This document shows, piece by piece, positions 20,511 through 64,000 of a DNA stretch of 64,000 nt. Location of the stretch: the IMG/VR virus record IMGVR_UViG_3300009614_000107. One strand, given 5' to 3'. Origin of the DNA: a virus. Its lineage: Duplodnaviria > Heunggongvirae > Uroviricota > Caudoviricetes. Each line of letters opens with the position of its first letter. Position 1 is the stretch's first letter. The translations under genes and the position numbers were made by a program. A model generated the notes under the pieces. That model was not told the origin of the DNA. It was given only the letters and a program-made list of their open reading frames with translations, and did no database searches.

Positions 20511-20515
20511 AAGAA

Positions 20516-22086: not shown

Positions 22087-22088
22087 TT

Positions 22089-22570: not shown

Positions 22571-22576
22571 TAAGAC

Positions 22577-22588: not shown

Positions 22589-22664
22589 TGGAGCCCCAGG
22601 CAGGACTCGGACCTGCGACCATCAACTTACAAGGTTGACGCACTACCAACTATGCTACAGGGGC
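22589..22664 (-). tRNA. tRNA-Thr (anticodon UGU), CCA encoded
   Basis: GCCCCTG...loop CTTGTAA...GGTCCGAGTCC...CTGGGGCTCCA (one U-U mismatch in acceptor stem). Confidence 0.7.
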
Positions 22665-22700
22665 AACAGTGGTAAAAGGTATGTGTATGGTTATAAATAT

Positions 22701-23204: not shown

Positions 23205-23208
23205 GAGA

Positions 23209-25948: not shown

Positions 25949-25967
25949 CACTCCTATTGTACCTACA

Positions 25968-25979
25968 TTTATAAATATT
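25968..25979. promoter_or_regulatory. TTTATAAATATT promoter element for tfb (near-leaderless)
   Basis: between PolB stop (25989) and tfb start. Confidence 0.55.
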
Positions 25980-25988
25980 ATGAGATTT

Positions 25989-44326: not shown

Positions 44327-44500
44327 TTGGGCAAGAAAAGAAAGGCTGAGAACAATTATACAACTGTGCGTGTCAGTAAAGATTTTGTTGATAAGGTTGC
44401 CAAGCTCAGAATCACAGAATCTTTTGAGGATACGCTTAGAAGGATTCTTAACTGGGAACCTCTAAAAAAACAGTCCTCTGAGGTATCCGATAGCAAGTGA
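44327..44500 (+). CDS. possible ribbon-helix-helix (CopG/Arc-like) small regulator (57 aa, TTG start)
   Basis: NNYTTVRVSKDFVDKVAKLRITESFEDTLRRIL beta-alpha-alpha pattern; AATATTTA(A)TA-like element 25-35 nt upstream; overlaps 3' end of convergent GT2 gene by 39 nt. Confidence 0.3.
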   Translation: MGKKRKAENNYTTVRVSKDFVDKVAKLRITESFEDTLRRILNWEPLKKQSSEVSDSK

Positions 44501-45397
44501 TAATTGCATTATTGTAAATGCAACGGTTTCTTCTGGTAGCAACTCTAGAATAAGAATGTATGATGAAATTCCTATTATTCCTAGTGCTGGGAACATATAG
44601 AAGATAATTGGAGCAAGAATTAACAGTAAAATTAAAGCAATCGAAGGTATTGCCCTAGATAACTTGAAGATATGCTTGACTCTGAGTAGTCTACCCCAGC
44701 TCCAACCATACCCATTCATTTGTTTTTGGAATGCCTTGTATGTCACTCTTTCCTTGTGAACAACTGGAACGGCTGGTACACCAAGCAAACAATATCCTGC
44801 ATTTCTGAGTCTATTGTTGAGCTCCCAATCCTCACATCCACCAATTTCCTCTGAGAATCCACCAACTTTTCGGATTGCATCTGCTTTGTAGACAGCATTG
44901 TAGCCAGGAACACTGTTGACATAGACGGTGTTTGTGTACTTCCTAGAATGGTTTGATGCTATTTTCATAACATTGCTTTTTGCTCTGGAAAGACTTGTTG
45001 ATGTGTCTGGTTCACAGCCAGATGTTATGGCTGCAACTGGAATGAATTGTGTGGTTTTTGGGTCAACAACTGGAGATCTATAAATTTCCATTAAGTTCTC
45101 CATTTCTTCAGCCCAAGTCTCTGGGATTACTGTATCACTATCTAGGAACCCAACGAACTCAGATGTTACGTGTCTCAAACCTTCATTACAGGCCACTGCT
45201 CTTTTGCTACCTTTGAAATTTGTTTTTGGCTCTTCTAGGATAGTACAACCAAAGGCTTTTGCTATATCTTTTGTCTCATCTGATGAGTTGGCATCTACGA
45301 TAATGACATGCACTGGATTGGTTTGTTTTGAGAGGGATAATAGACAGGGTTCTAACACAGGAGCACTGTTTCGAGTGGGAATTATAACATCCATCAA
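44462..45397 (-). CDS. glycosyltransferase family 2
   Basis: MMDVIIPTRNSAPVL...IIVDANSSDET GT-A signature; C-terminal TM helices. Confidence 0.75.
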   Translation of the reverse strand: MMDVIIPTRNSAPVLEPCLLSLSKQTNPVHVIIVDANSSDETKDIAKAFGCTILEEPKTNFKGSKRAVACNEGLRHVTSEFVGFLDSDTVIPETWAEEMENLMEIYRSPVVDPKTTQFIPVAAITSGCEPDTSTSLSRAKSNVMKIASNHSRKYTNTVYVNSVPGYNAVYKADAIRKVGGFSEEIGGCEDWELNNRLRNAGYCLLGVPAVPVVHKERVTYKAFQKQMNGYGWSWGRLLRVKHIFKLSRAIPSIALILLLILAPIIFYMFPALGIIGISSYILILELLPEETVAFTIMQLSLAIGYLRGLFF

Positions 45398-45786
45398 AAT
45401 TCATTTCTCCAGTTCTTGATTCTGTAAATTAGGCTGAAACTTGCAGCACCTGGATACCCATTTGATATTGCGTCAAAGAGCATATGTACGATAAGCCCAT
45501 TCACAAACGCACCGATAAGCATTGGTGAAATTGGCATTAGTAATATAGAAAAAATTATGGCTTCATAGCTATGAAATGGTAAGATAAAATGGTGGTAAGG
45601 AGCTAAAGTCTCTGAGAGTTCTGTGACACTTAGAGTAAATCGTTTCTTTCTCAGGAAGAAATCGACTTGATGATCAAAGTCCACAAGAACAGCACCTAAT
45701 AGAAATGGGATGATTAATGTTGGTGTCCAAATGAAACCGAACATAATCAGAAAGATGACCGATACAAAGAAATGATATTTTGCCAT
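45394..45786 (-). CDS. membrane protein
   Basis: start trimmed to internal Met to remove overlap. Confidence 0.35.
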   Translation of the reverse strand: MAKYHFFVSVIFLIMFGFIWTPTLIIPFLLGAVLVDFDHQVDFFLRKKRFTLSVTELSETLAPYHHFILPFHSYEAIIFSILLMPISPMLIGAFVNGLIVHMLFDAISNGYPGAASFSLIYRIKNWRNEF

Positions 45787-46544
45787 CAAAACTTTTTCCA
45801 CATCCCAAGGAACCAAGGAACCTTTGTTCCATCTATATCCAGTACAGTTGAATATTGTGTTAGACATAAATACTCTTCGTGATTTACGACAATTTTTGAC
45901 TCATTTTTATTCCTCATTTGTTTGTTTTGCCATAATAAATTACTATTTTCCATCCAGAGATTGTGTTGATGTAGACCGAGCCATTTGTTGCAATCTGCTA
46001 CTTTTATGTCACCACAAACTATTAGGATTCCGTTTGGTTTTAAGACTGTATTAATCCCTTTAAATGTTTGTTCTGGATTATCTCCGTGATCTATTGAATT
46101 GCTTGCATAGATCATATGAATTGAATTTGGTTTAAAAAGTTCAGCAATTTCCTCTCCTCTGCCTCTCAGAAGAAAGTCTCTCCCACCAAATTCTCTCTTA
46201 AAATCATCTGCAAGAGGATCAATTGCCCTCAAATCAAAAAGACCATCATCATATCCTTTGGTGAGTCTAGAACGTGGACCAGGACCAATCTCCAAACATT
46301 TAATTGCTTTGCCAGATATACCAAAATCTTTCTTTATTTCATTTAATGCTATCTCTATATCATTTGTTTGCATATCTTGGGAGTAACTTAGTGGTTTGCC
46401 GTTCATCTCACGTTTCCAATAAAGCAGTTCATCAGAATATCCAAAATTAGAATATTTTAGTACGTTATGAACATAATAAAGAAACAGCTTTGGATGAAAT
46501 ATTGCACCATGTACATAATTCACAGCTTTTCTTATTTTACTCAT
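45786..46544 (-). CDS. SAM-dependent methyltransferase-like protein
   Basis: motif I-like CLEIGPGPRS. Confidence 0.45.
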   Translation of the reverse strand: MSKIRKAVNYVHGAIFHPKLFLYYVHNVLKYSNFGYSDELLYWKREMNGKPLSYSQDMQTNDIEIALNEIKKDFGISGKAIKCLEIGPGPRSRLTKGYDDGLFDLRAIDPLADDFKREFGGRDFLLRGRGEEIAELFKPNSIHMIYASNSIDHGDNPEQTFKGINTVLKPNGILIVCGDIKVADCNKWLGLHQHNLWMENSNLLWQNKQMRNKNESKIVVNHEEYLCLTQYSTVLDIDGTKVPWFLGMWKKF

Positions 46545-47248
46545 ACGTTTGCCTTCAGCATAAAGTTCTTGTCGTTTGTGTATATCTTAACAGCAATACT
46601 AGGAATATTAGGATCGATATATTTTATAAACATTTTATTTTTAATGACCATATCATGGAAAAGTGGGTTGTTATAAATCAATACTATCTTCCTTGGATTT
46701 GTTGTTAGTGATTCAGATATGCGTTCAAGCACATCAAACATAACCTCTTTTGGAAACGAGTTGAATATATAAAAAAAATTATAATTATTATATTTATTAA
46801 ATATTCTTGCATCACAATGATAAATTTTTATATTTTTATGAGGAATTTTTGATATATTTCTTATACTTATCTCACATAATTCTTTATCAATTTCTATTCC
46901 GTCTATCTTTTCAAATGGATATTGTAGAAATGTTATGATTGCTCCACCCTTACCACTACCTATATCAATTATAGAATCTGTTTGTTGTATTTCTATTTTT
47001 GAGATTATTTTATTAAGAATTGGACCACCAGAACTTTGATGGCATGTCATATTTTCAGCATTAGATTTTCTATATTCAAGATCTATGCCAAGAGAAAACA
47101 TTCTCAATTGAAATCTTATGTTTTCTGGAGATATGTTAGTTATAATAAAATGTATTATAGGTTTAAAGTTCATACCAATCAACATATTGAGATATTTTCT
47201 GATCATGAATACTCTACGCTGATTGGTGCTGTTATAGAAGAAATTCAA
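46541..47248 (-). CDS. class I SAM-dependent methyltransferase
   Basis: IIDIGSGKGGAI motif I. Confidence 0.65.
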   Translation of the reverse strand: MNFFYNSTNQRRVFMIRKYLNMLIGMNFKPIIHFIITNISPENIRFQLRMFSLGIDLEYRKSNAENMTCHQSSGGPILNKIISKIEIQQTDSIIDIGSGKGGAIITFLQYPFEKIDGIEIDKELCEISIRNISKIPHKNIKIYHCDARIFNKYNNYNFFYIFNSFPKEVMFDVLERISESLTTNPRKIVLIYNNPLFHDMVIKNKMFIKYIDPNIPSIAVKIYTNDKNFMLKANV

Positions 47249-48141
47249 TAAGAAACATCCCTATATGTCTCTATAATTTTCTTTACAAGAATGTTTTTAC
47301 TAAGATTCTCCCTAAAGTACATTGCCCCATCTACATTTGGTTCAGTTCTATCTTCAAGATTTTTGAGAAGTTCAAGAGAAGTATTGTAGTCTGTAGCATA
47401 TTCACAAAATGGAAATTTTTGTGACCATATAACATATCTGCCCATACTCAGGCTTTCCTGAACCATATGTGAAAGAGCATCATGTTTTGTTATTCTAAGA
47501 AGGACAGTTGACCTTTTATAGATATTTTCCATCTCATTATGATTGACGATATCTATATACTCAACATTTGGTAATTTTTTGAATCTTGCCCCACCAAGAA
47601 TTATATAATTATACGATGTGTTTTTGATTAATTCTTTAATTATTTTTCCACCATAGAAGTCTGTTGCACCGACTTTTTTCCATCCTAAATAGACAAGAAC
47701 TGTGAATTTCTTTGGTAATGGAGAAATATCAGTAGTTGAGATATCACTTGGAAGGATCAAGCATTTTGATTCTACACCCTTAGTTTTAAGTTCGTCAACT
47801 AACCAAGGAGAGTTGGCCAAATGCAAATCAATAAGTGGGTTGATACGATTTAGTAGTCTCTGATCTGCTTCAAGTACATCTGTTCCAATCCAGTGAAGTA
47901 CTATCTTTTTTCCCATCTTCTTCAGTATTGTAAATATCACAAGCCAAAGAAATCCCTCTATGCCACTCAGTTTTGCAGAAATATGATGAAAAACATCCGA
48001 TCTTATTACTTTCACAAAGTTTCCGAATATAGATAAGATGCTACGATTCACAACAAGCACTTGAATATCTGGATAGTCTTTTAGGAGGGACGAAAGAAAC
48101 TTGACATCTATACTATTTCCAGAGAGTAGCACTTTTGTCAT
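47245..48141 (-). CDS. GT-B fold glycosyltransferase (GT4-like)
   Basis: C-terminal E-x7-E-like MVQESLSMGRYVI. Confidence 0.45.
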   Translation of the reverse strand: MTKVLLSGNSIDVKFLSSLLKDYPDIQVLVVNRSILSIFGNFVKVIRSDVFHHISAKLSGIEGFLWLVIFTILKKMGKKIVLHWIGTDVLEADQRLLNRINPLIDLHLANSPWLVDELKTKGVESKCLILPSDISTTDISPLPKKFTVLVYLGWKKVGATDFYGGKIIKELIKNTSYNYIILGGARFKKLPNVEYIDIVNHNEMENIYKRSTVLLRITKHDALSHMVQESLSMGRYVIWSQKFPFCEYATDYNTSLELLKNLEDRTEPNVDGAMYFRENLSKNILVKKIIETYRDVSY

Positions 48142-48770
48142 TGTTCATCATCCTTCCATGCCACTATTGTATTTATGATTGTTTTATTATATGGTCTAAA
48201 GATATTTACAAATTTTATTAAATATGTTATCAGCCTCTGTTCTTCTCCTTCAAAATCCAGTCTGCTTACTAGTTTTGTTTTAAATCCAAGTTTTTTAAAA
48301 TCTTTTTCATACCAGATCGTATTATGTGTGTGATAATCGTTCACTTTTGGTGAGAGAGCATTGCCGTTTGGACAAGTAAATATCACAAGTGGTGCTAAAT
48401 CTCTAAGATATTCAATCATCTTTAATGTCTTATTTTTATCTAATGTGTGTTCAACAACTTCTGTGCAAATTATTATTTTTACATCTTTTGTTATATTTGC
48501 TGGATATGGAACTTCAACAGCATCATATAAATAGACATCTCGATAAAATGGCATCCATTTTTTTGCAAATTCAACATTATCTGGATTCTTGTCTATTCCA
48601 ATGATATAAGGTTCCCCTGTGAAATGGTATTGCTTTCCATAACTAAATGACATAATAGTGTGCATCACTTGACCATAACCGAATCCAATATCAAGTATCT
48701 TCTTATTATGTAGATCCTTTGGAAGCAAATCGATAACTGGTGCTACATTATATAGCGCACCGTGTGCCAT
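48138..48770 (-). CDS. class I SAM-dependent methyltransferase
   Basis: ILDIGFGYGQ motif I. Confidence 0.6.
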   Translation of the reverse strand: MAHGALYNVAPVIDLLPKDLHNKKILDIGFGYGQVMHTIMSFSYGKQYHFTGEPYIIGIDKNPDNVEFAKKWMPFYRDVYLYDAVEVPYPANITKDVKIIICTEVVEHTLDKNKTLKMIEYLRDLAPLVIFTCPNGNALSPKVNDYHTHNTIWYEKDFKKLGFKTKLVSRLDFEGEEQRLITYLIKFVNIFRPYNKTIINTIVAWKDDEQ

Positions 48771-49303
48771 TATATCAATCTCCTAATTTTTTTAGATGTG
48801 TTTTTAATAAATAAATTCACACCTTCTGGCTTCTTGCTTATTACAGTGCATGGATTTCCATAAGCAACAACATTGTCTGGGATATCTTTGACAACATTGC
48901 TACCCTGACCAATTATCGTATTCTTACCTATTCTTATCCGATTCCTGATTGTTGAACCAGCATGAATTACTGTATCATCACCTATTTCCACAAAACCACT
49001 TACAAATGTTGAGATAATTTCTGTTCTATTCCCAATTATACAATCATGTCCAATATCTGTGTATTGACCTATAATTACCTGGTTGCCAATTTTTGTTGGT
49101 CGAGTAACGCCACTCATAATAACAGAATGAGGACCAATGTAAACATCATTTCCTATCTCAACACCAAATTTTGCTTCTTCACGTTTGAAATTCTTGAATT
49201 CTAAAGGAGTGCCACAGATAACAGAAAACTCACGAATTTCCACATTTTTACCTATGACTGCTGGTTGATTGATAATTGCTGTTGAATGTATGAATTCAGT
49301 CAA
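48770..49303 (-). CDS. hexapeptide-repeat (left-handed beta-helix) sugar N-/O-acetyltransferase
   Basis: repeated [LIV]G-x4 hexapeptides: IGNDVYIGPHSVI, IGNQVIIGQYTDIG, IGNRTEI. Confidence 0.7.
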   Translation of the reverse strand: MTEFIHSTAIINQPAVIGKNVEIREFSVICGTPLEFKNFKREEAKFGVEIGNDVYIGPHSVIMSGVTRPTKIGNQVIIGQYTDIGHDCIIGNRTEIISTFVSGFVEIGDDTVIHAGSTIRNRIRIGKNTIIGQGSNVVKDIPDNVVAYGNPCTVISKKPEGVNLFIKNTSKKIRRLI

Positions 49304-49809
49304 TCCTTCTTCTTCTCCTTTAGATTCTCATATAGGAAGTCAATATATACTTCGAATAAGTATCTTGCATCAATATGCCAAATTGGAAGTTCTCCATCTT
49401 CTAATGGAACCCTGTTTCCCTTCATCCAATCTGTATCATAATGCCATGTTTTCTTTGGCTGGTTGAGTGGTGGATACCAAACACGCTTGCGATTGAAACC
49501 ATATTTTCCAACATGAATATGTCTATGTATATCCTTACCAGAACTCTTTAGATAATCAATTAATACCTTTTTTTCTTTCGCAACATCATCTGTGATACCA
49601 TAAACAGTATCAACATCAAGAAGTTCGTTAAGTTCAGTAATTGCTATTGCATAACTATCAGTTTCTTCATACATGTCTCTAAAGAAAAATGGGTGTATAT
49701 GAAAAAGATTGCAACATCCAAAAAAGAAGAGTTTAATTCCTCTCTTAATGCACCAAAAAGCATCAACATCTGGTGTATCCCAATCAAATAAAACTTTTAA
49801 CTTACCCAT
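49300..49809 (-). CDS. hypothetical protein
   Basis: ORF in glycan cluster. Confidence 0.4.
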   Translation of the reverse strand: MGKLKVLFDWDTPDVDAFWCIKRGIKLFFFGCCNLFHIHPFFFRDMYEETDSYAIAITELNELLDVDTVYGITDDVAKEKKVLIDYLKSSGKDIHRHIHVGKYGFNRKRVWYPPLNQPKKTWHYDTDWMKGNRVPLEDGELPIWHIDARYLFEVYIDFLYENLKEKKKD

Positions 49810-50795
49810 TTTTTACCATATCCTATTTTTGGTCTATCTTTGGTTTTAAAGATAACCCAAAGTTGATAATACTCACCAATACTACCTAGTACTTGCAATA
49901 TAAACAAATTGAAATTAAACGTACTGTGCGACCACGTTATACCAAAAACAAGTGCTATTATGGACAGTAACACCCCTAAACTGGGAAAAAGTGTTGGTAG
50001 TCCAAATAACAGTGAAATTATTAGAAAAACTGTTGAGAATAAAAATACTGATCTGAGTAATACACCACAAAAATGATGGATATCTATTAAGCAATATCTC
50101 CACCCGTATTTATATATAAATTTAAAAAATGTTGGTGTTTTAAATGCCTTCCATAGATTTCTTTTTCCCTGTACTCCAAAATGATATCCCTGAAGATCAT
50201 TTTCAACACCGCCAACTGCTCCAGATTTAATTAATCGAATAACCAAATCCCTATCCTGACCACGAGTAAAGAATTGATCAAAACCACCAACCTTGAGTAC
50301 AACTTCCCTCTTAAATGCCACAACACCCGATGGGTTTCCAAGATGGTTATTATCATATGTTATTGTTGAATATTTATGTCCATTATCTTCAAATTTCTTT
50401 GATATTAATTTAGAATCTGTTTCATATTGATGTGAACATAAGTAATCGAGCTGTGGGTTCTCTTTAAAATATCTAACATTGGCTTCAACCCACCAATGTG
50501 ATCTTACACTATCTGAATCAGCCCACAGAATAATATCTCCTGTTGCTTTGGACAGCAATAGATTCATTGCATACCCAGTTCCCAAGCCATTCATATCATA
50601 ATATACGCTGACTGGTGTCTTGCTTTCTTTCTGAAAGTTAAGAACAATTTCTTCTGTTTTATCATTACTTTTGCCAACACAAATAAGTATTTCATTTGGT
50701 TGCAGAGATTGATCTGAAATGAACTTGAGCGCATATGGTAGACTCCATTCCGCATTCCTAGTTGGAAGGAGCACAGAGACAGTCATATTATCCAT
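49797..50795 (-). CDS. glycosyltransferase family 2 with C-terminal TM segments
   Basis: VSVLLPTRNAEWSL...DSD. Confidence 0.7.
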   Translation of the reverse strand: MDNMTVSVLLPTRNAEWSLPYALKFISDQSLQPNEILICVGKSNDKTEEIVLNFQKESKTPVSVYYDMNGLGTGYAMNLLLSKATGDIILWADSDSVRSHWWVEANVRYFKENPQLDYLCSHQYETDSKLISKKFEDNGHKYSTITYDNNHLGNPSGVVAFKREVVLKVGGFDQFFTRGQDRDLVIRLIKSGAVGGVENDLQGYHFGVQGKRNLWKAFKTPTFFKFIYKYGWRYCLIDIHHFCGVLLRSVFLFSTVFLIISLLFGLPTLFPSLGVLLSIIALVFGITWSHSTFNFNLFILQVLGSIGEYYQLWVIFKTKDRPKIGYGKKWVS

Positions 50796-51409
50796 CTAAT
50801 TACCTCAAATGCTTCTGCATAATCAGAATCACATTGAACACCACGTGCCTTGGCCAAACCATAAATGGCATCTTTATCAAAGTATCTTTTGTTAGATTGT
50901 GATTTATATTTTTGTAAAATATCCCACTTTCTATCCATGTGACTTTTTGTTAATTTACTAAAAAGCTGTGTGTTGAACGTTATATAATTCCAGGGTAGTT
51001 CATATGAAATTATACTACTTGAAGTCTTAAATGCCCTGACAGTTTCAGATGCAATAACTTGATGATCTTGGTGGAAGTCATTAAGAGAGGGACAAATCAC
51101 AAGATCTGGCTTGAACATGTCTCTTATCTTTATCAATTCATCAAGTATAGGTTGTCTGTGAACATGTAATTCCCTCACTTTGAAGGTAAATATTTTGTAA
51201 GAATCCTTTCCAAGTCCAATAGTATTCATAACGTCTTGAAATTCATTTTTGAGTGTGTCTTTAGAATATTCCTTTGGAATAGATATTTCTGCTGTTGAAA
51301 ACACAACCCAAAATAGATTCGCTCCGTTCTCTAAAAGTTTAAAAACAGTACCTCCACATCCGAGCTCTATGTCATCTGTGTGTGGACTTAGAAGTAAGAT
51401 ATTTTTCAA
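50783..51409 (-). CDS. PIG-L/LmbE family N-acetylglucosaminyl deacetylase
   Basis: ILLLSPHTDDIELGCGGT signature. Confidence 0.75.
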   Translation of the reverse strand: MKNILLLSPHTDDIELGCGGTVFKLLENGANLFWVVFSTAEISIPKEYSKDTLKNEFQDVMNTIGLGKDSYKIFTFKVRELHVHRQPILDELIKIRDMFKPDLVICPSLNDFHQDHQVIASETVRAFKTSSSIISYELPWNYITFNTQLFSKLTKSHMDRKWDILQKYKSQSNKRYFDKDAIYGLAKARGVQCDSDYAEAFEVIRWII

Positions 51410-52071: not shown

Positions 52072-52073
52072 TT

Positions 52074-54924: not shown

Positions 54925-54925
54925 A

Positions 54926-56266: not shown

Positions 56267-56269
56267 CCA

Positions 56270-57205
56270 TTACACCTTATCCCACGTAGGTGGCTCAAGT
56301 GCATCCTGAGCTTCGTAGTATGTAAATAAGGTATTGATGATTTTATAAATATCACTCTTTGGATGCCAGTTTTGTTGTCTTGCAATCTTATCTATATCAA
56401 GTGTAGATTCTTTGACATACCCAGGTGCTTTAAAATCAGTCAATGTAAAGTTTGTTTTGTAGCCCTTTGTTGCTGCAACTTCGGATACTAGTTTTGCTAA
56501 ATCACCAGTGGAAATTTCCATTCCCATCGAGACATTATATAGTCCTGTATTTTCTGGTAGGTTGAATGTTGGTGCTTTCATTACAGCATCAACAATATCG
56601 TTCACATCTACTAAATCACGATAGGCTTGTCCTTGACAGAATATTTGTTCAGGAATCCCTCTTATTGCACTCCAAACCAATCTGTTAGGGAAGCAACGTC
56701 CTCTGGTTCCGACAACTGTCCCAAATCTGAAAACAACATTCTTCTTTCCAGACTTGCGTATGATTTCTTCTGCAATCCATTTGGAATAGCCATATTGTGA
56801 TGAAAGATTTACAGGACTGAGCTCCGTAAATTTCCTTCCTTCACCATAAAGATTTGCAGTTGATGAAATTACAATCATTTTTGGGTTGATTGCTCTGAGT
56901 GCATTGTAAGTTCCAATAGAATTATTGTAGAAAGCATCCTTGCTACCGTGGAACCAGCCTTCTAAGTCCTTAACCATTGACCAAGGAGTTGCAGCGAGAT
57001 GATAGAGTACTTCTGGTGGCTCATCTGGGAACATAAAATCGTCTTTTGACAAGTCACCATATTGATAGATAACACCCCTTTTCAATTCATATTTTGGGGT
57101 AACTTTGTCAATGTTTATAACTTTCTTTCCAGAAAGCCTTAGTGCCTCAACTAGGTGTGAACCTATGAAACCTGATCCACCTGTTACAACTACTATTCCA
57201 CCCAT
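56270..57205 (-). CDS. NAD-dependent sugar epimerase/dehydratase (extended SDR)
   Basis: VVTGGSGFIGSHLV Rossmann motif and YGYSK catalytic YxxxK. Confidence 0.8.
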   Translation of the reverse strand: MGGIVVVTGGSGFIGSHLVEALRLSGKKVINIDKVTPKYELKRGVIYQYGDLSKDDFMFPDEPPEVLYHLAATPWSMVKDLEGWFHGSKDAFYNNSIGTYNALRAINPKMIVISSTANLYGEGRKFTELSPVNLSSQYGYSKWIAEEIIRKSGKKNVVFRFGTVVGTRGRCFPNRLVWSAIRGIPEQIFCQGQAYRDLVDVNDIVDAVMKAPTFNLPENTGLYNVSMGMEISTGDLAKLVSEVAATKGYKTNFTLTDFKAPGYVKESTLDIDKIARQQNWHPKSDIYKIINTLFTYYEAQDALEPPTWDKV

Positions 57206-57292
57206 TTACTTTTTCTCCTTTACTTTTTTAACACCTATCAATCCAGCCCACATCATCTGACCAGAAAACTCCATAACTCCCCACAGCCATCC

Positions 57293-57850
57293 CTATGGTG
57301 AAACTTCTATCAATCCATTAGAATACATAATCCAACTAGCCCAATATCCACTAACTGTTAGATAATATAATGATCCTGTAAATATTAATCCAAGTATCCA
57401 AAACCATTTTGAAATACTTAAAAAATTATATATTTTACCCAGTATAATTACAGTTGCAATCATAATCATTCCAATTACAAAATGTGATATACCATAAGTA
57501 CCAAAAAACATAATATATATATCATTACCAATACCAGTATTTGGTTCGTAAAAAACTTTTTCAACCCACCAAGCAAAATCATGTGATATTAAAATAGATG
57601 CCATGATAACAAGCACCATCACTGAATATCGTATTGTATAATGAATTTGTCTGGTTTCGTAATATAATACTATATACAATAAACACCAAGTCAAAACTGT
57701 AATAGAATGTGGAGTAAATGGTGTGAATGGAATTGCTATTCCTCTTATATCAAACAATCCATATCGAAAGATGTTGACAATGGCAACTATCATTACTACT
57801 ATTGCAGGAGATAGTGCTAAAAAGTCAAATAATTCACCTTTATTGACCAA
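57293..57850 (-). CDS. polytopic membrane protein
   Basis: about 6 TM helices. Confidence 0.4.
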   Translation of the reverse strand: MVNKGELFDFLALSPAIVVMIVAIVNIFRYGLFDIRGIAIPFTPFTPHSITVLTWCLLYIVLYYETRQIHYTIRYSVMVLVIMASILISHDFAWWVEKVFYEPNTGIGNDIYIMFFGTYGISHFVIGMIMIATVIILGKIYNFLSISKWFWILGLIFTGSLYYLTVSGYWASWIMYSNGLIEVSP

Positions 57851-57866
57851 AATTTATTTCACCATT

Positions 57867-58286
57867 TTATTTTACTTCCTTTTTTAGGTGAACTTCATAG
57901 AATATCCAGATCCAACTACTACAAGCATATGTGCCAGAGATTATAAATATTAATGAAGTTAGCCTTGTCCAAGGCAAAATCCATGTGATTAGTGAGGCTA
58001 TAGATAACCCAATACCTATAAGCAACGTCTTAAATGATGTGGGATTATCCATATAAAATTCATCGTGCTTTGTACCATCTGCTTCAGTCACGTGAAAGAT
58101 AGTTGGCTCTGGTAAATTTCTACAAGTTATAAAGAAATATAGAATTACCATAACACCAATAAATCCAATTATAACAGAGCTAACGTGCATTTCTGGTGAT
58201 ATAAAATCAAGAATTCCGATTGCTAATATTAAAATTGCTGATGTATATAATGATGCAAGTGTTGGTGGTTCTCCAACTATACCCAT
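57867..58286 (-). CDS. polytopic membrane protein
   Basis: 4 TM helices. Confidence 0.4.
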   Translation of the reverse strand: MGIVGEPPTLASLYTSAILILAIGILDFISPEMHVSSVIIGFIGVMVILYFFITCRNLPEPTIFHVTEADGTKHDEFYMDNPTSFKTLLIGIGLSIASLITWILPWTRLTSLIFIISGTYACSSWIWIFYEVHLKKEVK

Positions 58287-58498
58287 TAGAGCAACCCACC
58301 TCTGGCTTCATCCATCTCCTTGAATGTCTGTTTATAGTTGCTTAGAAGCAGAGGTATTCCACTAAGAGGAATATAGAAAAGCATTATGTGGAAATGATAA
58401 TGAATCTCTTTCCAAATCCACACATATATGAAAGCAGCCATATCTATTGTAATATATCCTAATCCAGTCAGCTTCAAAATTTCAAAAATATCTATCAT
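58286..58498 (-). CDS. small membrane protein
   Basis: 2 TM helices. Confidence 0.35.
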   Translation of the reverse strand: MIDIFEILKLTGLGYITIDMAAFIYVWIWKEIHYHFHIMLFYIPLSGIPLLLSNYKQTFKEMDEARGGLL

Positions 58499-59703
58499 TT
58501 TCTGGATAGCTCCTTAATTACACGTCTTTGAATTGTGATAAAGAAAATTATTGAAACCAAAGCGACAGAGGATAGGAACGACACTCCACATAATATGGCC
58601 AAGGTTGCAAGCAACTTGCCTTCAGCCAAGTAGACTATAATTGCTTGGATTCCTGCCCACATAGAGAATATGAAGAGAACCAAGGCTGGTAATCCGAGAA
58701 CAGTGTATGGTCTTGCCCATATTCCAGACCAGAAAATAGAGTTAATTAGATTTAATCCCTGGGATAGGAGATTGCTGGCTGGCTTCTCTGGTTTGTTGTA
58801 TGTTATTACACATGGAACTTCTGAAATTTTCATATTTTCTTCTTTTGCAATATTAAGTATCTCAAGGGAAGCACCCATTCCATCGTCTGTAATTTTTATG
58901 GACTCGATTGCCTTTCTACTGTAAGCTCGGAATCCACACTGTGTATCACCGATTTTGTAGATTAGGTTGAGTGCTGAGATTACTGCTTTTCTATGAAGAG
59001 GAACCTGTTCTCCTGCTAAGAACCTGTTGCCTATCACTATATCTGAGGTTTGTAGAGCAGTTAGGAATCTGGGAATCTCATTTGGATTGTGTTGTCCATC
59101 TCCGTCCAAAGTGATAAGGGTATCATAGTAGTTTTCTTTTGCATATTTGAATATCTCATAAAGTGCTTGTCCATATCCAGACCATTTGAAATCAAGAACT
59201 TGTGCTCCAAGAGACTTTGAGATTTCTGCTGTTCCATCCATCGAGCCATTTGATACAACTAGAACATTGCCAAATTTTTTGGCTTCTTTTATAACATCAC
59301 TGATATTATCCTGTTCGTTATGTGCTGGTATCCCTATGAGGATCCTGCTTCTTGTAGTGTGAATTAGGCATCTTACATATTCTGAGGAGAAGAGTTGTTT
59401 GGATTCCTCTAGGTTGAGAACATCGTCACAGCCTATGATATGATAGTGCTGGGGAACAGAGGCGTATGTCCCGAAAACCATATAGAAGGTTTCTGTCTTG
59501 CAGTTTTGCTCCATATATGAACGTAATCTATCTAGGCAGTGGGCAAACTCTGCTGGTGTTGGTGTCTCTGTATGGCGGTTTGTGACAACCATAATACGTA
59601 AATTGTGTCCTTTTGGTTCCTTTGTTTTAACTATGTAACAGAGATCATCCTGGTAAAGTAATTGTTCCCGTTGTGGGATTGTGCAAAGGGGGCATTCAGA
59701 CAC
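58495..59703 (-). CDS. HIT-like domain fused to DPM1-like GT2 glycosyltransferase with C-terminal TM helices
   Basis: N-terminal CPLCTI...DDLCYIVKTKEPKGHNLRIMVVTNRH...SVPQHYHIIG (HIT pattern); then IGIPAHNEQDNI...VSNGSMDGT GT2; two C-terminal TM. Confidence 0.6.
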   Translation of the reverse strand: MSECPLCTIPQREQLLYQDDLCYIVKTKEPKGHNLRIMVVTNRHTETPTPAEFAHCLDRLRSYMEQNCKTETFYMVFGTYASVPQHYHIIGCDDVLNLEESKQLFSSEYVRCLIHTTRSRILIGIPAHNEQDNISDVIKEAKKFGNVLVVSNGSMDGTAEISKSLGAQVLDFKWSGYGQALYEIFKYAKENYYDTLITLDGDGQHNPNEIPRFLTALQTSDIVIGNRFLAGEQVPLHRKAVISALNLIYKIGDTQCGFRAYSRKAIESIKITDDGMGASLEILNIAKEENMKISEVPCVITYNKPEKPASNLLSQGLNLINSIFWSGIWARPYTVLGLPALVLFIFSMWAGIQAIIVYLAEGKLLATLAILCGVSFLSSVALVSIIFFITIQRRVIKELSRK

Positions 59704-60128
59704 TACTTAACTCCACCAGCCACAGTAGGATAAATTAACTTTAATGCTAGGAATATAATCAGCACAATAATGATTATGGAATCACTGAAGATTTTTGGTG
59801 CTTTTGCACGTTGCATTATATCACCATAAATTACTTCTGCTTTTCCAATTATAAAACCACCAACACTTTCACAACCAATCATAAGGATATATGCAGCAAA
59901 TGCGTATGTAGCAAACCCAAGTATCGTCATATTTTCAAAGTTTAACACACTTGTGAGAATGTTTGGTTCTATTACCATAGCTGTCATTATACCGACTACA
60001 AAACCAACAGCAATTTTCATTTGTCTATATTGAAATGTGTCTTTGAATGAATATTCTTCATCTTTATGTTCATCTGCATCCTCTTTCAGGAATGTCTTGA
60101 CCTTTTCTTTCAGATCATTTAGGTTCAT
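59703..60128 (-). CDS. GtrA-like small polytopic membrane protein
   Basis: 141 aa, 4 TM. Confidence 0.35.
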   Translation of the reverse strand: MNLNDLKEKVKTFLKEDADEHKDEEYSFKDTFQYRQMKIAVGFVVGIMTAMVIEPNILTSVLNFENMTILGFATYAFAAYILMIGCESVGGFIIGKAEVIYGDIMQRAKAPKIFSDSIIIIVLIIFLALKLIYPTVAGGVK

Positions 60129-60786
60129 CTGTTATCCCAGCCACAAACTTTTCCCAAGCCTCATCAAATTCCTTGATGGTGGTTTCTGTTCTTGGATGGG
60201 TTATCATACCCATAAGGACTTCATAGGATACTGTAACAATGTCTGCACCGTAACTGAAGGCTAGTGGAACATCTAATGGACTCCTAATACTTCCAGCAAT
60301 GATCTCTGCTGGTGGATCCCAGTCTGAACCGTGCTCTAGAAGGTAGATATGTGATAGCCTGAAAGCATCTTCAACTGCTTCCATATTCTTTTCATTCCAG
60401 TCAAGTATGCGGTTATAGAAGAGTGAAACATATCTTGCACCAGCTTCCATAGCAAGAATTGCCTGGGAAGCGGTCATTAGACACGTTGCATTTGTTGGGA
60501 TTCCGTTTTCTGTGAGTTCCGCTATTACTCCAAGTCCCTTGCCATCACTCCACATTGGGACTTTTATTACAATATTGCTATGGTTTATATCAAACAAATC
60601 CTTGGCTTCGTTGATTAATTCATCAATGGAACCCTTGGAGTTTGTAAGTTCGACACTTATTGGACCATCTACAATATCACAGATATCCGCTATTGCTGAT
60701 ATGTAGGCTTCCTTTGAATACTTCATACCAGATTTTCTGAAGATATTTTGGTTTGTTGTGACTCCATGAATCACACCCAAATCCAA
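60115..60786 (-). CDS. transaldolase / fructose-6-phosphate aldolase family (short type)
   Basis: GVTTNQ; Schiff-base lysine context IVIKVP...GIPTNATCLMTASQAILAMEAGARYVSLFYNRI. Confidence 0.75.
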   Translation of the reverse strand: MDLGVIHGVTTNQNIFRKSGMKYSKEAYISAIADICDIVDGPISVELTNSKGSIDELINEAKDLFDINHSNIVIKVPMWSDGKGLGVIAELTENGIPTNATCLMTASQAILAMEAGARYVSLFYNRILDWNEKNMEAVEDAFRLSHIYLLEHGSDWDPPAEIIAGSIRSPLDVPLAFSYGADIVTVSYEVLMGMITHPRTETTIKEFDEAWEKFVAGITDEPK

Positions 60787-60955
60787 TGCCTTTTCTATTT
60801 CATCTATCTTTGCTGTATCTAAAAAGATTGTCGTACCCTCATCATCTCCAAAGCCTTGTATATAATAACTGGAACCATAAGACCGATGAGTATGGCTTCC
60901 TTAATGCCTATTTCATCGTCTTTGTCCATATAGAACGTTTTTCTCAATGTCATTT

Positions 60956-61333
60956 CTAACACCTCAATAGATCGGGATTGATTTGCGCCAGAGGATGTTT
61001 CTTTTTGACAAAGTAATATGCTTCGTCACGTGACATTCCCATTTTTTCAAGCCAAAGAATTATTATGAATACTGATCTGGACATACCAGCTCTGCAACAG
61101 ACAAGAACTTTCTGATTACTTCCCAGTGCGTTTTCTAAATCTTTAAGAATTGTTGAAAATGCCTCTTCTGGGTTTGTACCATCATCATTTAAACGAAATT
61201 GATAGCAGTTTGGTAAATGACCGAGATCGAAGCCACCAACGTTAATTATATGGTTTATTTCATATTTATTAATATCATCCATAGCTATGAAGGAGTCACC
61301 AACATATAATCTGTCTAAGATTTTTGTTATCAT
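60956..61333 (-). CDS. dual-specificity (CX5R) protein/sugar-phosphate phosphatase
   Basis: VLVCCRAGMSRS active-site P-loop. Confidence 0.6.
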   Translation of the reverse strand: MITKILDRLYVGDSFIAMDDINKYEINHIINVGGFDLGHLPNCYQFRLNDDGTNPEEAFSTILKDLENALGSNQKVLVCCRAGMSRSVFIIILWLEKMGMSRDEAYYFVKKKHPLAQINPDLLRC

Positions 61334-61890
61334 TTTTGAACCAGCCTCTTCAACTCGTGGCAGACTAGGTGGGTGTAAACAGAATGAATTCCCTCAACAA
61401 CATACACATCCCCAGAACTAATTGTCAGGAAATGTGCGGTTGGGAATAACTTGGCTAAATCTCCACCATTATTCCCAGAAAGAATGAAGATTTCCCCCTT
61501 CTTTTCCTTAGCCAGATTTGCAGCACCTACTAGGTTCTGACTCCATTGCCCAGCATCCTGCTGTCCTGCTCCACCGTGAACGGTAATCAGGATAAGTCCA
61601 TCACCTTGAGTGAAATATTTCATTTGTTCGGTGTAGACTCTGCTCCATCCTCTGTCATTTGTGAGTGCTGATAATCTAGGTGCATTATCCACCATCGAAG
61701 TGACATCAAAACCAAGGTTCATCAAGTCTGATGCAAAATGGCTTGCTGTCGCTAGTGAACCGCCATTACCAGCAACAAAAATTCTCTTTCCCATCCTTCT
61801 AACAGCCATTAATTTCTGTGAGAAATCTTTAATGTCCTTTATGGATGTTGCCTTGAGCATATCGATTACTACAGTCTTTGGTTCAATCAA
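61330..61890 (-). CDS. SIS-domain phosphoheptose isomerase (GmhA-like)
   Basis: RIFVAGNGGSLATASHFASDL similar to GmhA GNGGSAADAQHFAAEL. Confidence 0.7.
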   Translation of the reverse strand: MIEPKTVVIDMLKATSIKDIKDFSQKLMAVRRMGKRIFVAGNGGSLATASHFASDLMNLGFDVTSMVDNAPRLSALTNDRGWSRVYTEQMKYFTQGDGLILITVHGGAGQQDAGQWSQNLVGAANLAKEKKGEIFILSGNNGGDLAKLFPTAHFLTISSGDVYVVEGIHSVYTHLVCHELKRLVQK

Positions 61891-62825
61891 GCCTCAATCA
61901 CTCTGGATCCATTTTGGTAGAATTTGAATGGCACGTATGGTAAGCCAATATTATTCATAGCCTTGATCAATTTAGCCTTATCCTGATTTTTGGCTGTATA
62001 GAACAATAAAAAGCCACCTCCACCAGCACCAATTATCTTTCCACCAAGTGCGCCTGACTTCATTGCTAATTCATATGCCTTGTCAATATCTGGATTTGTC
62101 ATCTCTGGAGTTATCTGACGTTTAGTTTTCCAATGAACATCAAGAGTTCTTCCAAACTCATCATATTCACAGGCTTCAAGCGCACTGAAACTTCTCTCAC
62201 CGAGTTGCATTATTTTAAGCATATTTTCATCATCATTGCCAACTTTGGCAAGTATGGGGTTGGCATCTCTTGTGAAATTTGTGTAGAATAGTGATAAATG
62301 ATCTTCCAAGCCTGGAACTTCCATCTTTTTACTCATAACAAGTCCAGCCTTATTTATTGTGTAAACACGAATTCCACCATAAAGTGCAGTATATTGATCT
62401 TGTTTACCAACTGGATGTCCAAGTGATCTATCCAAGTCAAAGGCTAGTTCTGCAATATTATTAATTGGTGTCTTTGTGTAGACTGAAAGAGCATTAATTA
62501 AACCAACAGCAAATGAACAGGAAGAACCCATACCGCTTCCACTTGGTAAGTCGGATAATGTTGTGATATCTACGTGATCTCTAATGTTAAAGTATTCTAG
62601 GGCAACTCTAATGAACTTATGTTGAATATCATCAAGTTCGTTTGCTATCTCTATCCTTGAATATGCCAAACGAATTGGACTTTCGAATCTAGAATTAATT
62701 GCAACGTAAACAAACTTATCAATTGCAGCAGAAATCCAGAACCCATCGTGTTTAGTATAGAACTCTGGTATATCTGTACCCCCACCGCCTAGGGGAAGTC
62801 TATGAGGTGTTTTGGATATTATCAA
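61887..62825 (-). CDS. GHMP-family sugar kinase (HddA-like heptose-7-phosphate kinase candidate)
   Basis: LPSGSGMGSSCSFAVG GHMP motif; N-terminal PLGGGGTD. Confidence 0.7.
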   Translation of the reverse strand: MIISKTPHRLPLGGGGTDIPEFYTKHDGFWISAAIDKFVYVAINSRFESPIRLAYSRIEIANELDDIQHKFIRVALEYFNIRDHVDITTLSDLPSGSGMGSSCSFAVGLINALSVYTKTPINNIAELAFDLDRSLGHPVGKQDQYTALYGGIRVYTINKAGLVMSKKMEVPGLEDHLSLFYTNFTRDANPILAKVGNDDENMLKIMQLGERSFSALEACEYDEFGRTLDVHWKTKRQITPEMTNPDIDKAYELAMKSGALGGKIIGAGGGGFLLFYTAKNQDKAKLIKAMNNIGLPYVPFKFYQNGSRVIEA

Positions 62826-63492
62826 CTTTCTTTTTCCTCCAAACTGGTGCGTCTTTCTTAATTGCTAGAAACACAATAACTGTACAAATTAGCCTATCTA
62901 GCATATAATATGGTGTATTCCAAACTGTCTCATTTGCGTTTGCTGATGGTGGTATATACCAACCAAGCATAAACAGAGTGGCTATTACAAGACCGAGAAC
63001 AATTAATCCTAATGATTTTTTATCTGTTTTCCAGCCAGTTGTTTTTAATATGAACCAAACAAACATCAGACTTACTAGGTGAAGAACCCAGTCTAACTGG
63101 AAACCAAGAATAAATGCGTTTGTGATTAGATATGGAACTTCCCAATAATGAGATCCTATGAACACAACTAGAACAGATATTGCTATAGCTTGTGGAAAAT
63201 CCCATTTTTTAACTACCATTAGGTATAATGCAAATACAAATCCAACTCCAATATAGAACATAAACAGAGTTATTATTGGATTTGCTTGAATAACATTATT
63301 AAGAAATGGGATCATTCCTTTCAATAAATAAGAAATACCCAGAAGCATAATCGCAACGGGCATTAAGACTACCATTAAATTGTTTAGTTTCTTGCTTTTA
63401 AAATAAAAGAAATACATCCAGAAGATTGGCTGTAACCACACCATTGTGAAGTCAAGTAAAGAATAAAAATCACTTGTATTCATTGAATTCAA
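62800..63492 (-). CDS. polytopic membrane protein
   Basis: 6-7 TM helices. Confidence 0.45.
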   Translation of the reverse strand: MNSMNTSDFYSLLDFTMVWLQPIFWMYFFYFKSKKLNNLMVVLMPVAIMLLGISYLLKGMIPFLNNVIQANPIITLFMFYIGVGFVFALYLMVVKKWDFPQAIAISVLVVFIGSHYWEVPYLITNAFILGFQLDWVLHLVSLMFVWFILKTTGWKTDKKSLGLIVLGLVIATLFMLGWYIPPSANANETVWNTPYYMLDRLICTVIVFLAIKKDAPVWRKKKVDNIQNTS

Positions 63493-64000
63493 GTCCTATT
63501 TATTGCAAGCCAATCCCATTCTGCTTTGTAGAGTGCAGCTACGTTTTTATCTGTGATTAAAAGCATATTTTCTGCATTTTCTGTTTCGGCTGCGGTTGTC
63601 CAATTGAAACTTCCTGTTGTAACATAGACACCATCAACAATCATAAATTTATTGTGCATTATTCCAGAACCTGTGTCAAAGGAAACTTTGATATTTTCAT
63701 ATCTTCCTATATAAGAAAACATATTTCCTTCAGTTCTCTGGGATGGTTCTCCAATAACATATATTTTGATGCCTCTGTTTCCAGCAGCAATTAAAGCATC
63801 TGCAATATTTTGACTTGTAAATGAGTAAATAGCTATGTATATTGTAGAGTTTGCATTGTTAATTAGTTTGATTACTTCGTTGGAACAGCTAGTATGTGTT
63901 GAGAAAAAGACTTTGACATTTGTTGAATATGGTTCTGGTGGTCCGTGGGCAATTATCCCAGGAAGATTAGAACCAATTGACAGTCCTATAATGAATACTA
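63489..64000 (-). CDS. phospholipase D / HKD-nuclease family protein (N-terminus beyond window)
   Basis: HKD motif HNKFMIVDG...GSFNWT; frame open upstream to window edge. Confidence 0.55.
   Translation of the reverse strand, partial: VFIIGLSIGSNLPGIIAHGPPEPYSTNVKVFFSTHTSCSNEVIKLINNANSTIYIAIYSFTSQNIADALIAAGNRGIKIYVIGEPSQRTEGNMFSYIGRYENIKVSFDTGSGIMHNKFMIVDGVYVTTGSFNWTTAAETENAENMLLITDKNVAALYKAEWDWLAINRT

Follow-up and report, generated by a model that had tools for sequence, protein, structure and literature searches.

A conserved, predicted heptose and glycan module in a large archaeal-type mobile element, with candidate non-homologous substitutes for GmhB and HddC

The 64,000-nucleotide stretch analyzed here (the window) belongs to the IMG/VR virus record IMGVR_UViG_3300009614_000107 and carries a large glycan cluster with a predicted branch for the synthesis of heptose, which is the subject of this study. 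Its coordinates place the window, in reverse complement, over the final 64 kb of a 197-kb contig, which is represented by independent assemblies from several peat and wetland metagenomes (NCBI JAFMOA010002524.1, JGI Ga0187878_1000020, and others). The cluster (44462-63492) comprises 27 co-directional genes on the minus strand, most of which overlap by 1-26 bp or lie less than 20 bp apart. Family assignments are based on Pfam and NCBIfam hidden Markov model (HMM) scans of the cluster genes, comparisons with PDB structures, and hydropathy analysis for transmembrane helices (Table 1).

The gene inventory proposed by an earlier, sequence-only reading of the window was largely reproduced. The HMM scans recovered all three glycosyltransferases of family GT2, the four S-adenosylmethionine (SAM)-dependent methyltransferases (one of them below threshold), both hexapeptide-repeat acyltransferases, the B12-binding radical SAM enzyme, the NAD-dependent epimerase/dehydratase of the short-chain dehydrogenase/reductase (SDR) type, the PIG-L/LmbE deacetylase, and the WbqC-like protein. 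The several small membrane proteins were also found, as was the fold of the GT-C-like protein, whose best structural matches are protein-glycosylating GT-C enzymes. By contrast, the predicted GT-B glycosyltransferase yielded only sub-threshold Glycos_transf_1 matches (E 0.057), and this identity of the 298-aa protein is unconfirmed beyond an E value of about 0.06. The heptose genes, described as following the others, are part of the cluster but are transcribed first, since all genes lie on the minus strand.

The core of the cluster is conserved. Among nine further contigs, which were reached from homologs of the phosphatase or the GT2, the order kinase, isomerase, phosphatase, transaldolase, (HIT)GT2, SDR, radical SAM enzyme is kept in all nine, at 31-71% protein identity to the window; one of these loci is cut at its 5' end, with the phosphatase and the transaldolase still visible. 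In the window, the isomerase gene shares 4 bp with the kinase gene and another 4 bp with that of the phosphatase.

The canonical route to nucleotide-activated heptose via GmhA, HddA, GmhB, and HddC has been described (PMC10680097). The GHMP kinase of the window, as had been predicted, finds its best NCBIfam match in HddA (NF049969; 2.1e-44, 152 bits; equivalog cut-off 600). Its best solved relatives are also heptose kinases (PDB 3k85, 1e-37; 4n3o, 1e-35; WcbL 4usk, 2e-29), with solved fucokinase (2e-15) and mevalonate kinase (1e-10) far behind, and it shares 35% identity with the heptose kinase of Caulobacter phage Cr30. The isomerase with a SIS domain, likewise anticipated to be GmhA-like, matches the NCBIfam models for phosphoheptose isomerase (2.5e-14; 53 bits, against cut-offs of 209-320 for the GmhA models) and gmhA (2.7e-12), and aligns with the GmhA structure 5ltz over residues 20-179 (about 160 residues; 1.7e-10). 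When seven orthologs are aligned with GmhA of B. pseudomallei, the GNGGS motif, the position of His64, the NDxGW motif, and His183 are kept, and Glu replaces Gln175. The protein is a putative sedoheptulose-7-phosphate isomerase.

The third enzyme of the branch, announced as a transaldolase or fructose-6-phosphate aldolase (FSA)-type enzyme, is, by its best matches, a short-type transaldolase. Its matches to the PDB transaldolases 1vpx (1.3e-37) and 3s0c (3e-35) fall in the range of true short transaldolases (1e-37 to 1e-32), whereas FSA (1l6w) reaches 1.6e-15, and the residues Asp (FLDTA), Glu (SVE), Lys (VIKVP), and Phe (SLF) are all aligned. An identity as FSA was rejected because transaldolases match better by about 20 orders of magnitude and because the discriminating position is occupied by Phe, not Tyr.

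The SIS, GHMP, and phosphatase genes might instead stem from an unrelated pathway, such as one with a hexulose-phosphate isomerase of the ribulose monophosphate type, mevalonate kinase, galactokinase, or a KpsF-type isomerase, which would make their likeness to heptose enzymes coincidental. Indeed, all heptose-family scores lie under the equivalog cut-offs, and weak, partial NCBIfam matches exist to HxlB (3e-5), DiaA (4e-8), mevalonate kinase (3e-16), and fucokinase (1e-19). However, the best full-length matches are consistently heptose enzymes, by a margin of at least 20 orders of magnitude in the case of the kinase; the match of the SIS protein to GmhA extends over 160 residues and keeps active-site positions, and a transaldolase that produces sedoheptulose-7-phosphate is always adjacent. 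A coincidence of this kind is highly improbable, and the best family and structure matches, HddA and GmhA, agree with the heptose route proposed before. The heptose branch therefore holds at the family level, with enzymes that are, judging from their sequences, divergent relatives rather than strict orthologs. In a nucleotide search against deposited phages, the heptose genes returned a single match of 79 bp.

Between the isomerase and the transaldolase lies the gene of a 125-aa phosphatase with the fold of protein tyrosine phosphatases (PTP). Its earlier classification as a dual-specificity phosphatase (DSP) is borne out by Pfam DSPc (3.1e-13; 50.1 bits, cut-off 33.5) and by the motif VCCRAGMSRS (C80-X5-R86); 22 members of the family show no variation at D50, C80, R86, and S87. 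The family is very small (28 clusters among 5.8 billion proteins) and is found in metagenome contigs only, each of which, where examined, has this module. No relatives were detected in IMG/VR viral contigs, and GTDB genomes yielded only remote DSPs of Nitrospira that match 50-75 residues and reveal neither a cellular home nor a clue to the host. The phosphatase occupies the same position between isomerase and transaldolase in nine of nine divergent related contigs. Enzymes of the HAD family, to which GmhB belongs, are absent from the Pfam scans of the window genes and from the annotations of the adjoining 10 kb and of the related loci. A phage HAD phosphatase used as tblastn query found nothing in the window and only weak, short matches in two related loci (L029, 26 residues, E 0.002; L030, E 0.10), while the positive controls, GmhA and the kinase of phage Cr30, matched every locus. 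The claim that a CX5R enzyme stands in for GmhB thus has strong genomic support in the conserved position, the invariant residues, and the lack of HAD enzymes. The protein is probably a heptose-1,7-bisphosphate 7-phosphatase and a non-homologous substitute for GmhB. PTP-fold enzymes that act on sugar phosphates exist among the glucan phosphatases and PTP-like phytases; the CX5R chemistry of laforin, SEX4/LSF2, PTP-like phytases, and PTPMT1 on phosphate monoesters of sugars or polyols provides a precedent for a non-protein substrate. LSF1 is among the PDB matches of the phosphatase (3e-7). Unlike the carbohydrate phosphatases, the enzyme of the window has no carbohydrate-binding module, is minimal in length, and is closer in sequence to the MAPK phosphatases.

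An HddC nucleotidyltransferase had not been visible to the sequence-only reading, which is correct for the canonical families according to the Pfam scans of the cluster genes. The search beyond the window that it had recommended also found none in the precomputed Pfam annotations of the next 10 kb, where most genes carry no Pfam match. A phage HddC-like enzyme gave no match in tblastn, and the Pfam annotations of the related loci contain no NTP_transferase family, with the exception of a non-conserved CTP_transf_like gene in one of them (L029). The 402-aa GT2, however, possesses an N-terminal HIT-fold domain that had been overlooked. It has the alpha/beta fold of HIT proteins and the motif P84-x-H86-x-H88-I-I-G, with two of the three His residues of the triad, and its second-best structural match is Rv2613c, a HIT enzyme that acts as a phosphorylase. 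The subfamily, which is distinct and very small, comprises about 200 representatives among 1.84 billion proteins. The domain is always found beside the GT2, either fused to it, as in the window and in many homologs, or encoded by a separate open reading frame (ORF) between transaldolase and GT2 (L007, L011); in one representative (P0155), it is fused to the C-terminus of a transaldolase. Because it is fused to two different enzymes of the module, the HIT domain is likely to work in this pathway. HIT enzymes form nucleotidyl-histidine intermediates, and some of them (GalT, VTC2) interconvert sugar-1-phosphates and nucleoside diphosphate (NDP)-sugars. This chemistry and the fusions are the reasons for the tentative proposal that the attached GT2 receives its NDP-heptose from the domain, which would thereby replace HddC; we regard this as possible. 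In contrast to GalT, VTC2 (GDP-L-galactose phosphorylase), ADP-glucose phosphorylase, and the Ap4A phosphorylase Rv2613c, it consists of a single domain of about 115 aa rather than the tandem layout of GalT and carries the P-x-H-x-H motif. A GT2 homolog (P0117) with an apparent NTP_transf_3 fusion was discarded as a Rosetta-stone case, as the faint Pfam match overlaps the GT-A domain and the gene context is an unrelated cellular polysaccharide locus.

The GT2 domain combines a GT-A domain, a DxD-type motif (LDGDGQH), and a C-terminal membrane anchor (three transmembrane segments predicted at residues 328-389), as do polyprenyl-phosphate sugar synthases. Its NCBIfam matches are to AglJ (3.8e-28), PpgS (4.8e-25), dolichyl phosphate (Dol-P)-hexose transferase (5.8e-18), and ArnC (1.9e-7), all below the cut-offs. 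It is a predicted Dol-P-heptose synthase. The GT-C protein shows the expected transmembrane fold, its first external loop contains acidic residues, and it is nearest in fold to the protein-glycosylating enzymes Pmt4, AglB, and STT3. Orthologs with 28-33% identity are present in L011, L028, L029, L030, and L037, five of the nine related loci, and the one in L028 has a Pfam STT3 match; the window protein reads W-x-x-D-Y-P instead of WWDYG. The enzyme would move a lipid-linked sugar to protein outside the membrane, either as a PMT-like transferase of single sugars or as a minimal AglB-like oligosaccharyltransferase. The combination of GT2 and GT-C points to a sugar donor linked to lipid phosphate and to a protein acceptor.

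The same pairing of a membrane-anchored GT2 synthase with a GT-C characterizes GtrA/GtrB/GtrC, ArnC/ArnE-F/ArnT, DPM1 with PMT, and the haloarchaeal AglD/AglR/AglS and AglJ with AglB, where a lipid phosphate is loaded with the sugar in the cytoplasm, the product is flipped, and transfer takes place outside the membrane. Like phage gtr genes, the module is borne by a mobile element and likely remodels a surface. It differs from these systems in the heptose donor that we infer, in the HIT domain on the synthase, in the unusually short GT-C (495 aa) without an exact WWDYG, and in the lack of a clear GtrA-type flippase. The sole match to GtrA_DPMS_TM (E 0.015) is a 159-aa coiled-coil protein outside the window (L001 6099-6578), and none of the small membrane proteins within the cluster matches a family. 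The membrane protein that directly precedes the kinase has orthologs at the same position in L009, L028, L029, L030, and L037 (32-47% identity); the 141-aa membrane protein is a possible flippase. Of the three small proteins downstream of the GT2, the one of 139 aa resembles, by eye, a 108-aa ORF of L028. A second, small, anchorless DPM1-like GT2 (217 aa) precedes the 159-aa protein about 4.8-6.1 kb past the end of the window (L001 5246-6578), and small GT2 genes are also found upstream of the kinase in L009, L030, and L037.

Tailoring of the sugar is presumably the role of the SDR, the HpnJ-like radical SAM enzyme, and the MetW-like methyltransferase, whose orthologs occur in L011, L028, L029, L036, and L037. 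The SDR matches GalE (2.9e-22) and heptose epimerase (4e-16) in NCBIfam, is kept in all relatives at 37-55% identity, and may modify the activated sugar. The radical SAM enzyme, a candidate for C-methylation or ring rearrangement of the sugar, is kept in eight of nine loci at 44-71% identity; in the ninth (L007), there is a weak match of 21% to a second radical SAM gene. Its best NCBIfam model is HpnJ (5.6e-55; 187 bits, cut-off 577), followed by PhpK (75 bits), and there is no match at the equivalog level.

This similarity allows a different product, namely a sugar that is anchored to lipid and has undergone rearrangement, for instance into a carbocyclic cyclitol head group. The radical SAM enzyme would form it from a sugar that has been installed by a GT2 and, in this element, deacetylated. 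The ring contraction catalyzed by HpnI/HpnK/HpnJ and by calditol synthase (Cds) yields the cyclitol ether of hopanoids and the calditol of archaeal lipids (PMC13459092). In the window, a GT2 and the deacetylase (49797-51409) together with the radical SAM enzyme mirror HpnI/HpnK/HpnJ and archaeal calditol synthase; the radical SAM enzyme scores far nearer to HpnJ than to methylase models, none of which exceeds 75 bits, and sits in the conserved core beside GT2 and SDR. Against such a product, the HpnJ equivalog cut-off is far from reached, the deacetylase is not kept in related loci, radical SAM enzymes of class B are mostly methylases, and a GT-C that is most similar to protein glycosyltransferases and kept in five of nine loci points to a protein acceptor. 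A cyclitol lipid thus seems an improbable product of this locus.

Taken together, the module would operate in eight steps. The transaldolase would supply sedoheptulose-7-phosphate, which the GmhA-like isomerase would convert to the 7-phosphate of D-glycero-D-manno-heptose and the HddA-like kinase to heptose-1,7-bisphosphate. The CX5R phosphatase would then remove the 7-phosphate in place of the HAD enzyme GmhB, and the HIT-fold domain, in place of HddC, would convert heptose-1-phosphate to NDP-heptose via a nucleotidyl-histidine intermediate, using a nucleoside triphosphate, a nucleoside diphosphate, or an NDP-hexose of the host as nucleotide donor. The attached AglJ/DPM1-like GT2 domain would form Dol-P-heptose, and the SDR, the B12-dependent radical SAM enzyme, methyltransferases, and acyltransferases would tailor the sugar. 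After flipping, the GT-C would transfer it to protein, either S-layer or other surface proteins of the host or proteins of the element itself.

The family assignments of the transaldolase, isomerase, kinase, GT2, and GT-C, the gene order, and the lack of GmhB and HddC homologs are supported by sequence, fold, and synteny; the carrier and the acceptor are those suggested by the GT2 and GT-C. The gene content is solid, the replacement of GmhB probable, and that of HddC plausible. On balance, we lean slightly toward a conserved module, shared by a family of large virus-like or extrachromosomal archaeal elements, that makes heptose from central metabolites and transfers it first to dolichyl phosphate and then to proteins at the outer face of the membrane. 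It is conceivable, if rather doubtful, that two of the four steps to nucleotide-heptose have been taken over by unrelated folds, that the HIT-GT2 fusion channels the activated sugar to the lipid, and that this, together with the short GT-C, is the first case of protein glycosylation dependent on Dol-P-heptose, with which large archaeal viruses or extrachromosomal elements would rewrite the surface of cells or their own particles. A literature search found no heptose module in an archaeal element, no PTP-fold substitute for GmhB, no fusion of HIT and Dol-P-sugar synthase, and no lipid-phosphate heptose donor.

With the canonical route, the module shares adjacent genes for a GmhA-like isomerase and an HddA-like GHMP kinase, followed by SDR-type tailoring, on the way from sedoheptulose-7-phosphate to an activated heptose. 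It differs in that the HAD enzyme GmhB and the NTP_transferase enzyme HddC give way to the PTP-fold CX5R phosphatase and the HIT domain, in its dedicated transaldolase, and in its location on an archaeal mobile element. Borg extrachromosomal elements, large and archaeal like this one, invest in the decoration of surfaces with GT2 enzymes of the DPMS-like kind in multiple copies, with epimerases, and with deacetylases (PMC12660748). An affiliation with Borgs was considered and is not favored: the Borg study has no mention of heptose, a HIT domain, or a DSP, and the present element lacks a Borg-like load of tandem repeats.

Several observations weigh against the proposed pathway. The scores of the GmhA, HddA, and AglJ equivalog models in NCBIfam are all far under the curated cut-offs. 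The SIS protein has Asp in the place of the catalytic Glu68 of GmhA and lacks the S-T-S-G-x-S phosphate loop. In this element, the catalytic N-terminus of the transaldolase is without a canonical start codon: TTIFLDTAK, which contains the catalytic Asp, is encoded in frame, yet upstream of the first ATG/GTG/TTG (60786), and ACG is found at 60832-60834 where relatives have ATG (start MTLFLDTAK). The 44-aa ORF between phosphatase and transaldolase ends with TCT TTT TAG atop the N-terminal codons of the transaldolase, a plausible -1 slippery site with a stop; the ORF could be a remnant, serve in coupling, or mark a -1 frameshift site. A sequencing error is ruled out, as the region is identical in five independent assemblies, which leaves three readings of the N-terminus: translation may begin at ACG, the ribosome may slip by -1 on the T-run, or the protein may be truncated. 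The Pfam HIT match is faint (E 0.049; 14.7 bits, cut-off 21.5), and the P-x-H-x-H register resembles that of the Hint/Fhit hydrolases, not the HxHxQ of GalT. Among solved structures, the phosphatase comes nearest to protein phosphatases of the DUSP10 type (9e-15 in a profile search). To our knowledge, there is neither a single-domain HIT enzyme that acts as sugar-1-phosphate nucleotidyltransferase nor a PTP-fold enzyme that acts on heptose bisphosphate. Lastly, about 123 kb of the 197-kb contig and the host could supply GmhB and HddC in trans.

Some of these points would also fit an element that encodes only a partial route (transaldolase, isomerase, and kinase) and obtains GmhB- and HddC-like activities from its host. 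The CX5R enzyme would then act on proteins or in regulation, as phosphatases of other viruses do, and the HIT domain would be, with its two His residues in the hydrolytic Hint/Fhit arrangement, a nucleotide hydrolase for housekeeping or the clearing of by-products. In favor of such a reading, the analysis covered only the window and 10 kb of the adjoining contig. Heptose genes of bacterial phages offer a comparison: Caulobacter phage Cr30 and Synechococcus phage S-MITS9220M01 share HddA-like kinases (33-35% identity), isomerase, GT2, and epimerase with the module, but none has a DSP or a HIT domain. The cyanophage has a conventional phosphatase and nucleotidyltransferase beside the kinase, whereas Cr30, with epimerase, GT2, kinase, and isomerase, has neither annotated, so that partial, host-reliant heptose modules do exist among viruses. 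However, all loci examined have the phosphatase gene, translationally coupled, between those of the isomerase and the transaldolase, and its tiny family is confined to metagenome contigs that, wherever examined, carry the module. A housekeeping role leaves the fusions of the HIT domain to two pathway enzymes, GT2 and transaldolase, unexplained. Moreover, many archaea lack a heptose pathway, so supply by the host is not assured. A partial route is therefore considered unlikely, and the complete route from sedoheptulose-7-phosphate to Dol-P-heptose is the preferred reading of the locus.

The base composition of the cluster had been taken as a sign of separate acquisition, with about 30-33% GC as opposed to about 42-45% in the replication module. 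A low GC content does characterize the distal half, but the figures were off (34.9% for the cluster and 39.6% for the replication genes). Low GC is concentrated in the variable distal half, whereas the heptose genes, at 39.0%, match their flanks (39.0%), so that composition does not support a separate acquisition. The core is a vertically conserved part of this element family. In the accessory half, the gene set differs among related loci; in the window, WbqC is followed in order of transcription by the PIG-L deacetylase, a GT2 (332 aa), a 169-aa protein without assignment, a hexapeptide acyltransferase, a methyltransferase, the 298-aa possible GT-B, two methyltransferases, a membrane protein, and a GT2 (311 aa). 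The AT-rich distal half looks like a swappable set of decoration genes.

Table 1. Features of the glycan cluster and base composition of the regions compared.
Feature	Position	Strand	Match or remark	GC (%)
Whole cluster	44327-64000			34.9
Rest of window				39.0
Distal half of cluster	44462-54924			32.9
Conserved core	54926-63492			37.2
Heptose genes	60115-62825			39.0
Replication genes	20629-28325			39.6 (PolB 42.4)
Variable AT-rich accessory half	44462-52071	minus	gene set differs among related loci	
GT2, 311 aa	44462-45397	minus	HMM match	
SAM methyltransferase	45786-46544	minus	HMM match	
SAM methyltransferase	46541-47248	minus	HMM match	
Possible GT-B, 298 aa	47245-48141	minus	sub-threshold Glycos_transf_1	
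SAM methyltransferase	48138-48770	minus	sub-threshold, E 1e-5	
Hexapeptide acyltransferase	48770-49303	minus	HMM match	
GT2, 332 aa	49797-50795	minus	HMM match	
PIG-L/LmbE deacetylase	50783-51409	minus	HMM match	
WbqC-like protein	51406-52071	minus	WbqC, E 2.5e-70	
MetW-like SAM methyltransferase	52074-52712	minus	Pfam Methyltransf_11 and _23; conserved core	
GT-C glycosyltransferase, 495 aa	52712-54199	minus	PMT / STT3-AglB / ArnT class	
Hexapeptide-repeat acyltransferase	54178-54924	minus	Pfam Hexapep 1.2e-10; also in L028	
B12-binding radical SAM enzyme, HpnJ-like	54926-56266	minus	Pfam Radical_SAM and B12-binding	
SDR NAD-dependent epimerase/dehydratase	56270-57205	minus	Pfam Epimerase 2.9e-28	
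Three small proteins, 70/139/185 aa	57293-58498	minus	two polytopic membrane proteins (ORF list, hydropathy); no Pfam family	
GT2 domain with 3 C-terminal transmembrane helices	58495-59349	minus	Pfam Glycos_transf_2 7.8e-16; gene 58495-59703	
HIT-fold domain, residues 1-118 of the 402-aa protein	59350-59703	minus	candidate heptose-1-phosphate nucleotidyltransferase or phosphorylase	
Membrane protein, 141 aa	59703-60128	minus	3 predicted transmembrane segments; no Pfam family; absent from some relatives	
Short-type transaldolase	60115-60834	minus	Pfam TAL_FSA 7.6e-34	
44-aa ORF between phosphatase and transaldolase	60819-60953	minus	+1 register	
Dual-specificity (PTP-fold, CX5R) phosphatase, 125 aa	60956-61333	minus	4-bp overlap with isomerase gene	
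SIS-domain isomerase, GmhA-like	61330-61890	minus	4-bp overlap with kinase gene	
GHMP kinase, HddA-like	61887-62825	minus	Pfam GHMP_kinases_N and _C	
Polytopic membrane protein, 230 aa	62800-63492	minus	at least 4 predicted transmembrane segments; directly upstream of kinase; no Pfam family	

By its sequences, the replicon is archaeal in type. It encodes a family-B DNA polymerase (PolB), TFIIB, XPD-like and UvrD-like helicases, and clamp-loader subunits similar to RFC, as well as a uracil-DNA glycosylase, a PD-(D/E)XK nuclease, and an HNH-AP2 endonuclease. The nearest polymerases among deposited viruses, with only 24% identity, are those of haloarchaeal tailed viruses. Since there is no capsid gene within the 64-kb window, the element may be either a virus or a plasmid. 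The HNH endonuclease with an AP2 DNA-binding domain, of the homing-endonuclease type, is encoded beside the polymerase region (29470-30027, minus strand). Seven tRNA genes (Trp, two Lys, Arg, Ile, Met, Thr; 15236-22664, minus strand) are interspersed with structural-looking genes, a pattern typical of large viruses or megaplasmids. An array of about 30 ATG-initiated small ORFs of 45-113 aa, many of them very basic, occupies positions 5600-12900 on the minus strand, with a strong AT skew and a stretch of 6 kb without any ORF of at least 120 aa. A loose motif, 'KKGY.ARVVK', recurs by eye in this array; paralogy across it (5.7-12.9 kb) was rejected, as BLASTP supports one pair only (7033-7236 and 7238-7447).

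The window also encodes further proteins outside the cluster. Three repeat-rich proteins on the minus strand (within 15369-16671 and 19297-20142), namely a Gly/Ser/Asp-rich protein of 142 aa, a 'GY-repeat' protein of 256 aa, and one of 281 aa that contains a collagen-like G-x-y tract, are candidate targets of glycosylation; a collagen-domain protein is encoded near the module also in L009. An SPFH/Band-7 protein of 614 aa (13331-15175, minus strand) has the highest GC content of the window (47.5%), and a Band_7 gene likewise adjoins the glycan module in L029 (19809-20861). On the opposite strand, next to the glycan cluster, is the gene of a 758-aa protein (40871-43147, plus strand) with a signal or transmembrane N-terminus, a weak GH42-like match at the N-terminus, GH5 cellulase matches in two stretches (best at residues 377-622), and a C-terminal transmembrane anchor.

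Further genes flank the module here and in its relatives. Paralogous proteins with the N-terminal basic motif R-H-x-V-x-x-H-x-R-x-x-G-x-x-V-x-x-Y-x-RG are encoded in the window (43543-44235), where the copy has a C-terminal DUF5661 domain (9e-13), and by three further genes in tandem about 8-10 kb past the window end at position 64000 (L001 194-2319). Directly upstream of the module, a PLD-like protein with an HKD motif (Nuc-type; 187 aa; N-terminal transmembrane segment; 63492-64000, minus strand) extends past the window. In L011, an IS200/IS605 TnpA (Y1_Tnp) and a TnpB/Cas12f-like gene are located beside the glycan module (10966-11808).

If the proposed steps hold, the module would add two new enzymatic activities to superfamilies that are well studied, a PTP-fold phosphatase of sugar bisphosphates and a HIT-fold nucleotidyltransferase of sugar-1-phosphates, and would define a lipid-linked heptose donor not met in the literature searched. 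The phosphatase, the isomerase, the kinase, and the HIT domain are small and should be soluble, which makes these hypotheses testable in vitro. Large mobile elements of uncultivated archaea would then be self-sufficient for the path that leads from central metabolism to protein glycosylation. Such a route bears on the ways in which archaeal viruses or extrachromosomal elements may change the surface of their hosts, for example in superinfection exclusion or receptor masking, like the gtr genes of temperate phages.

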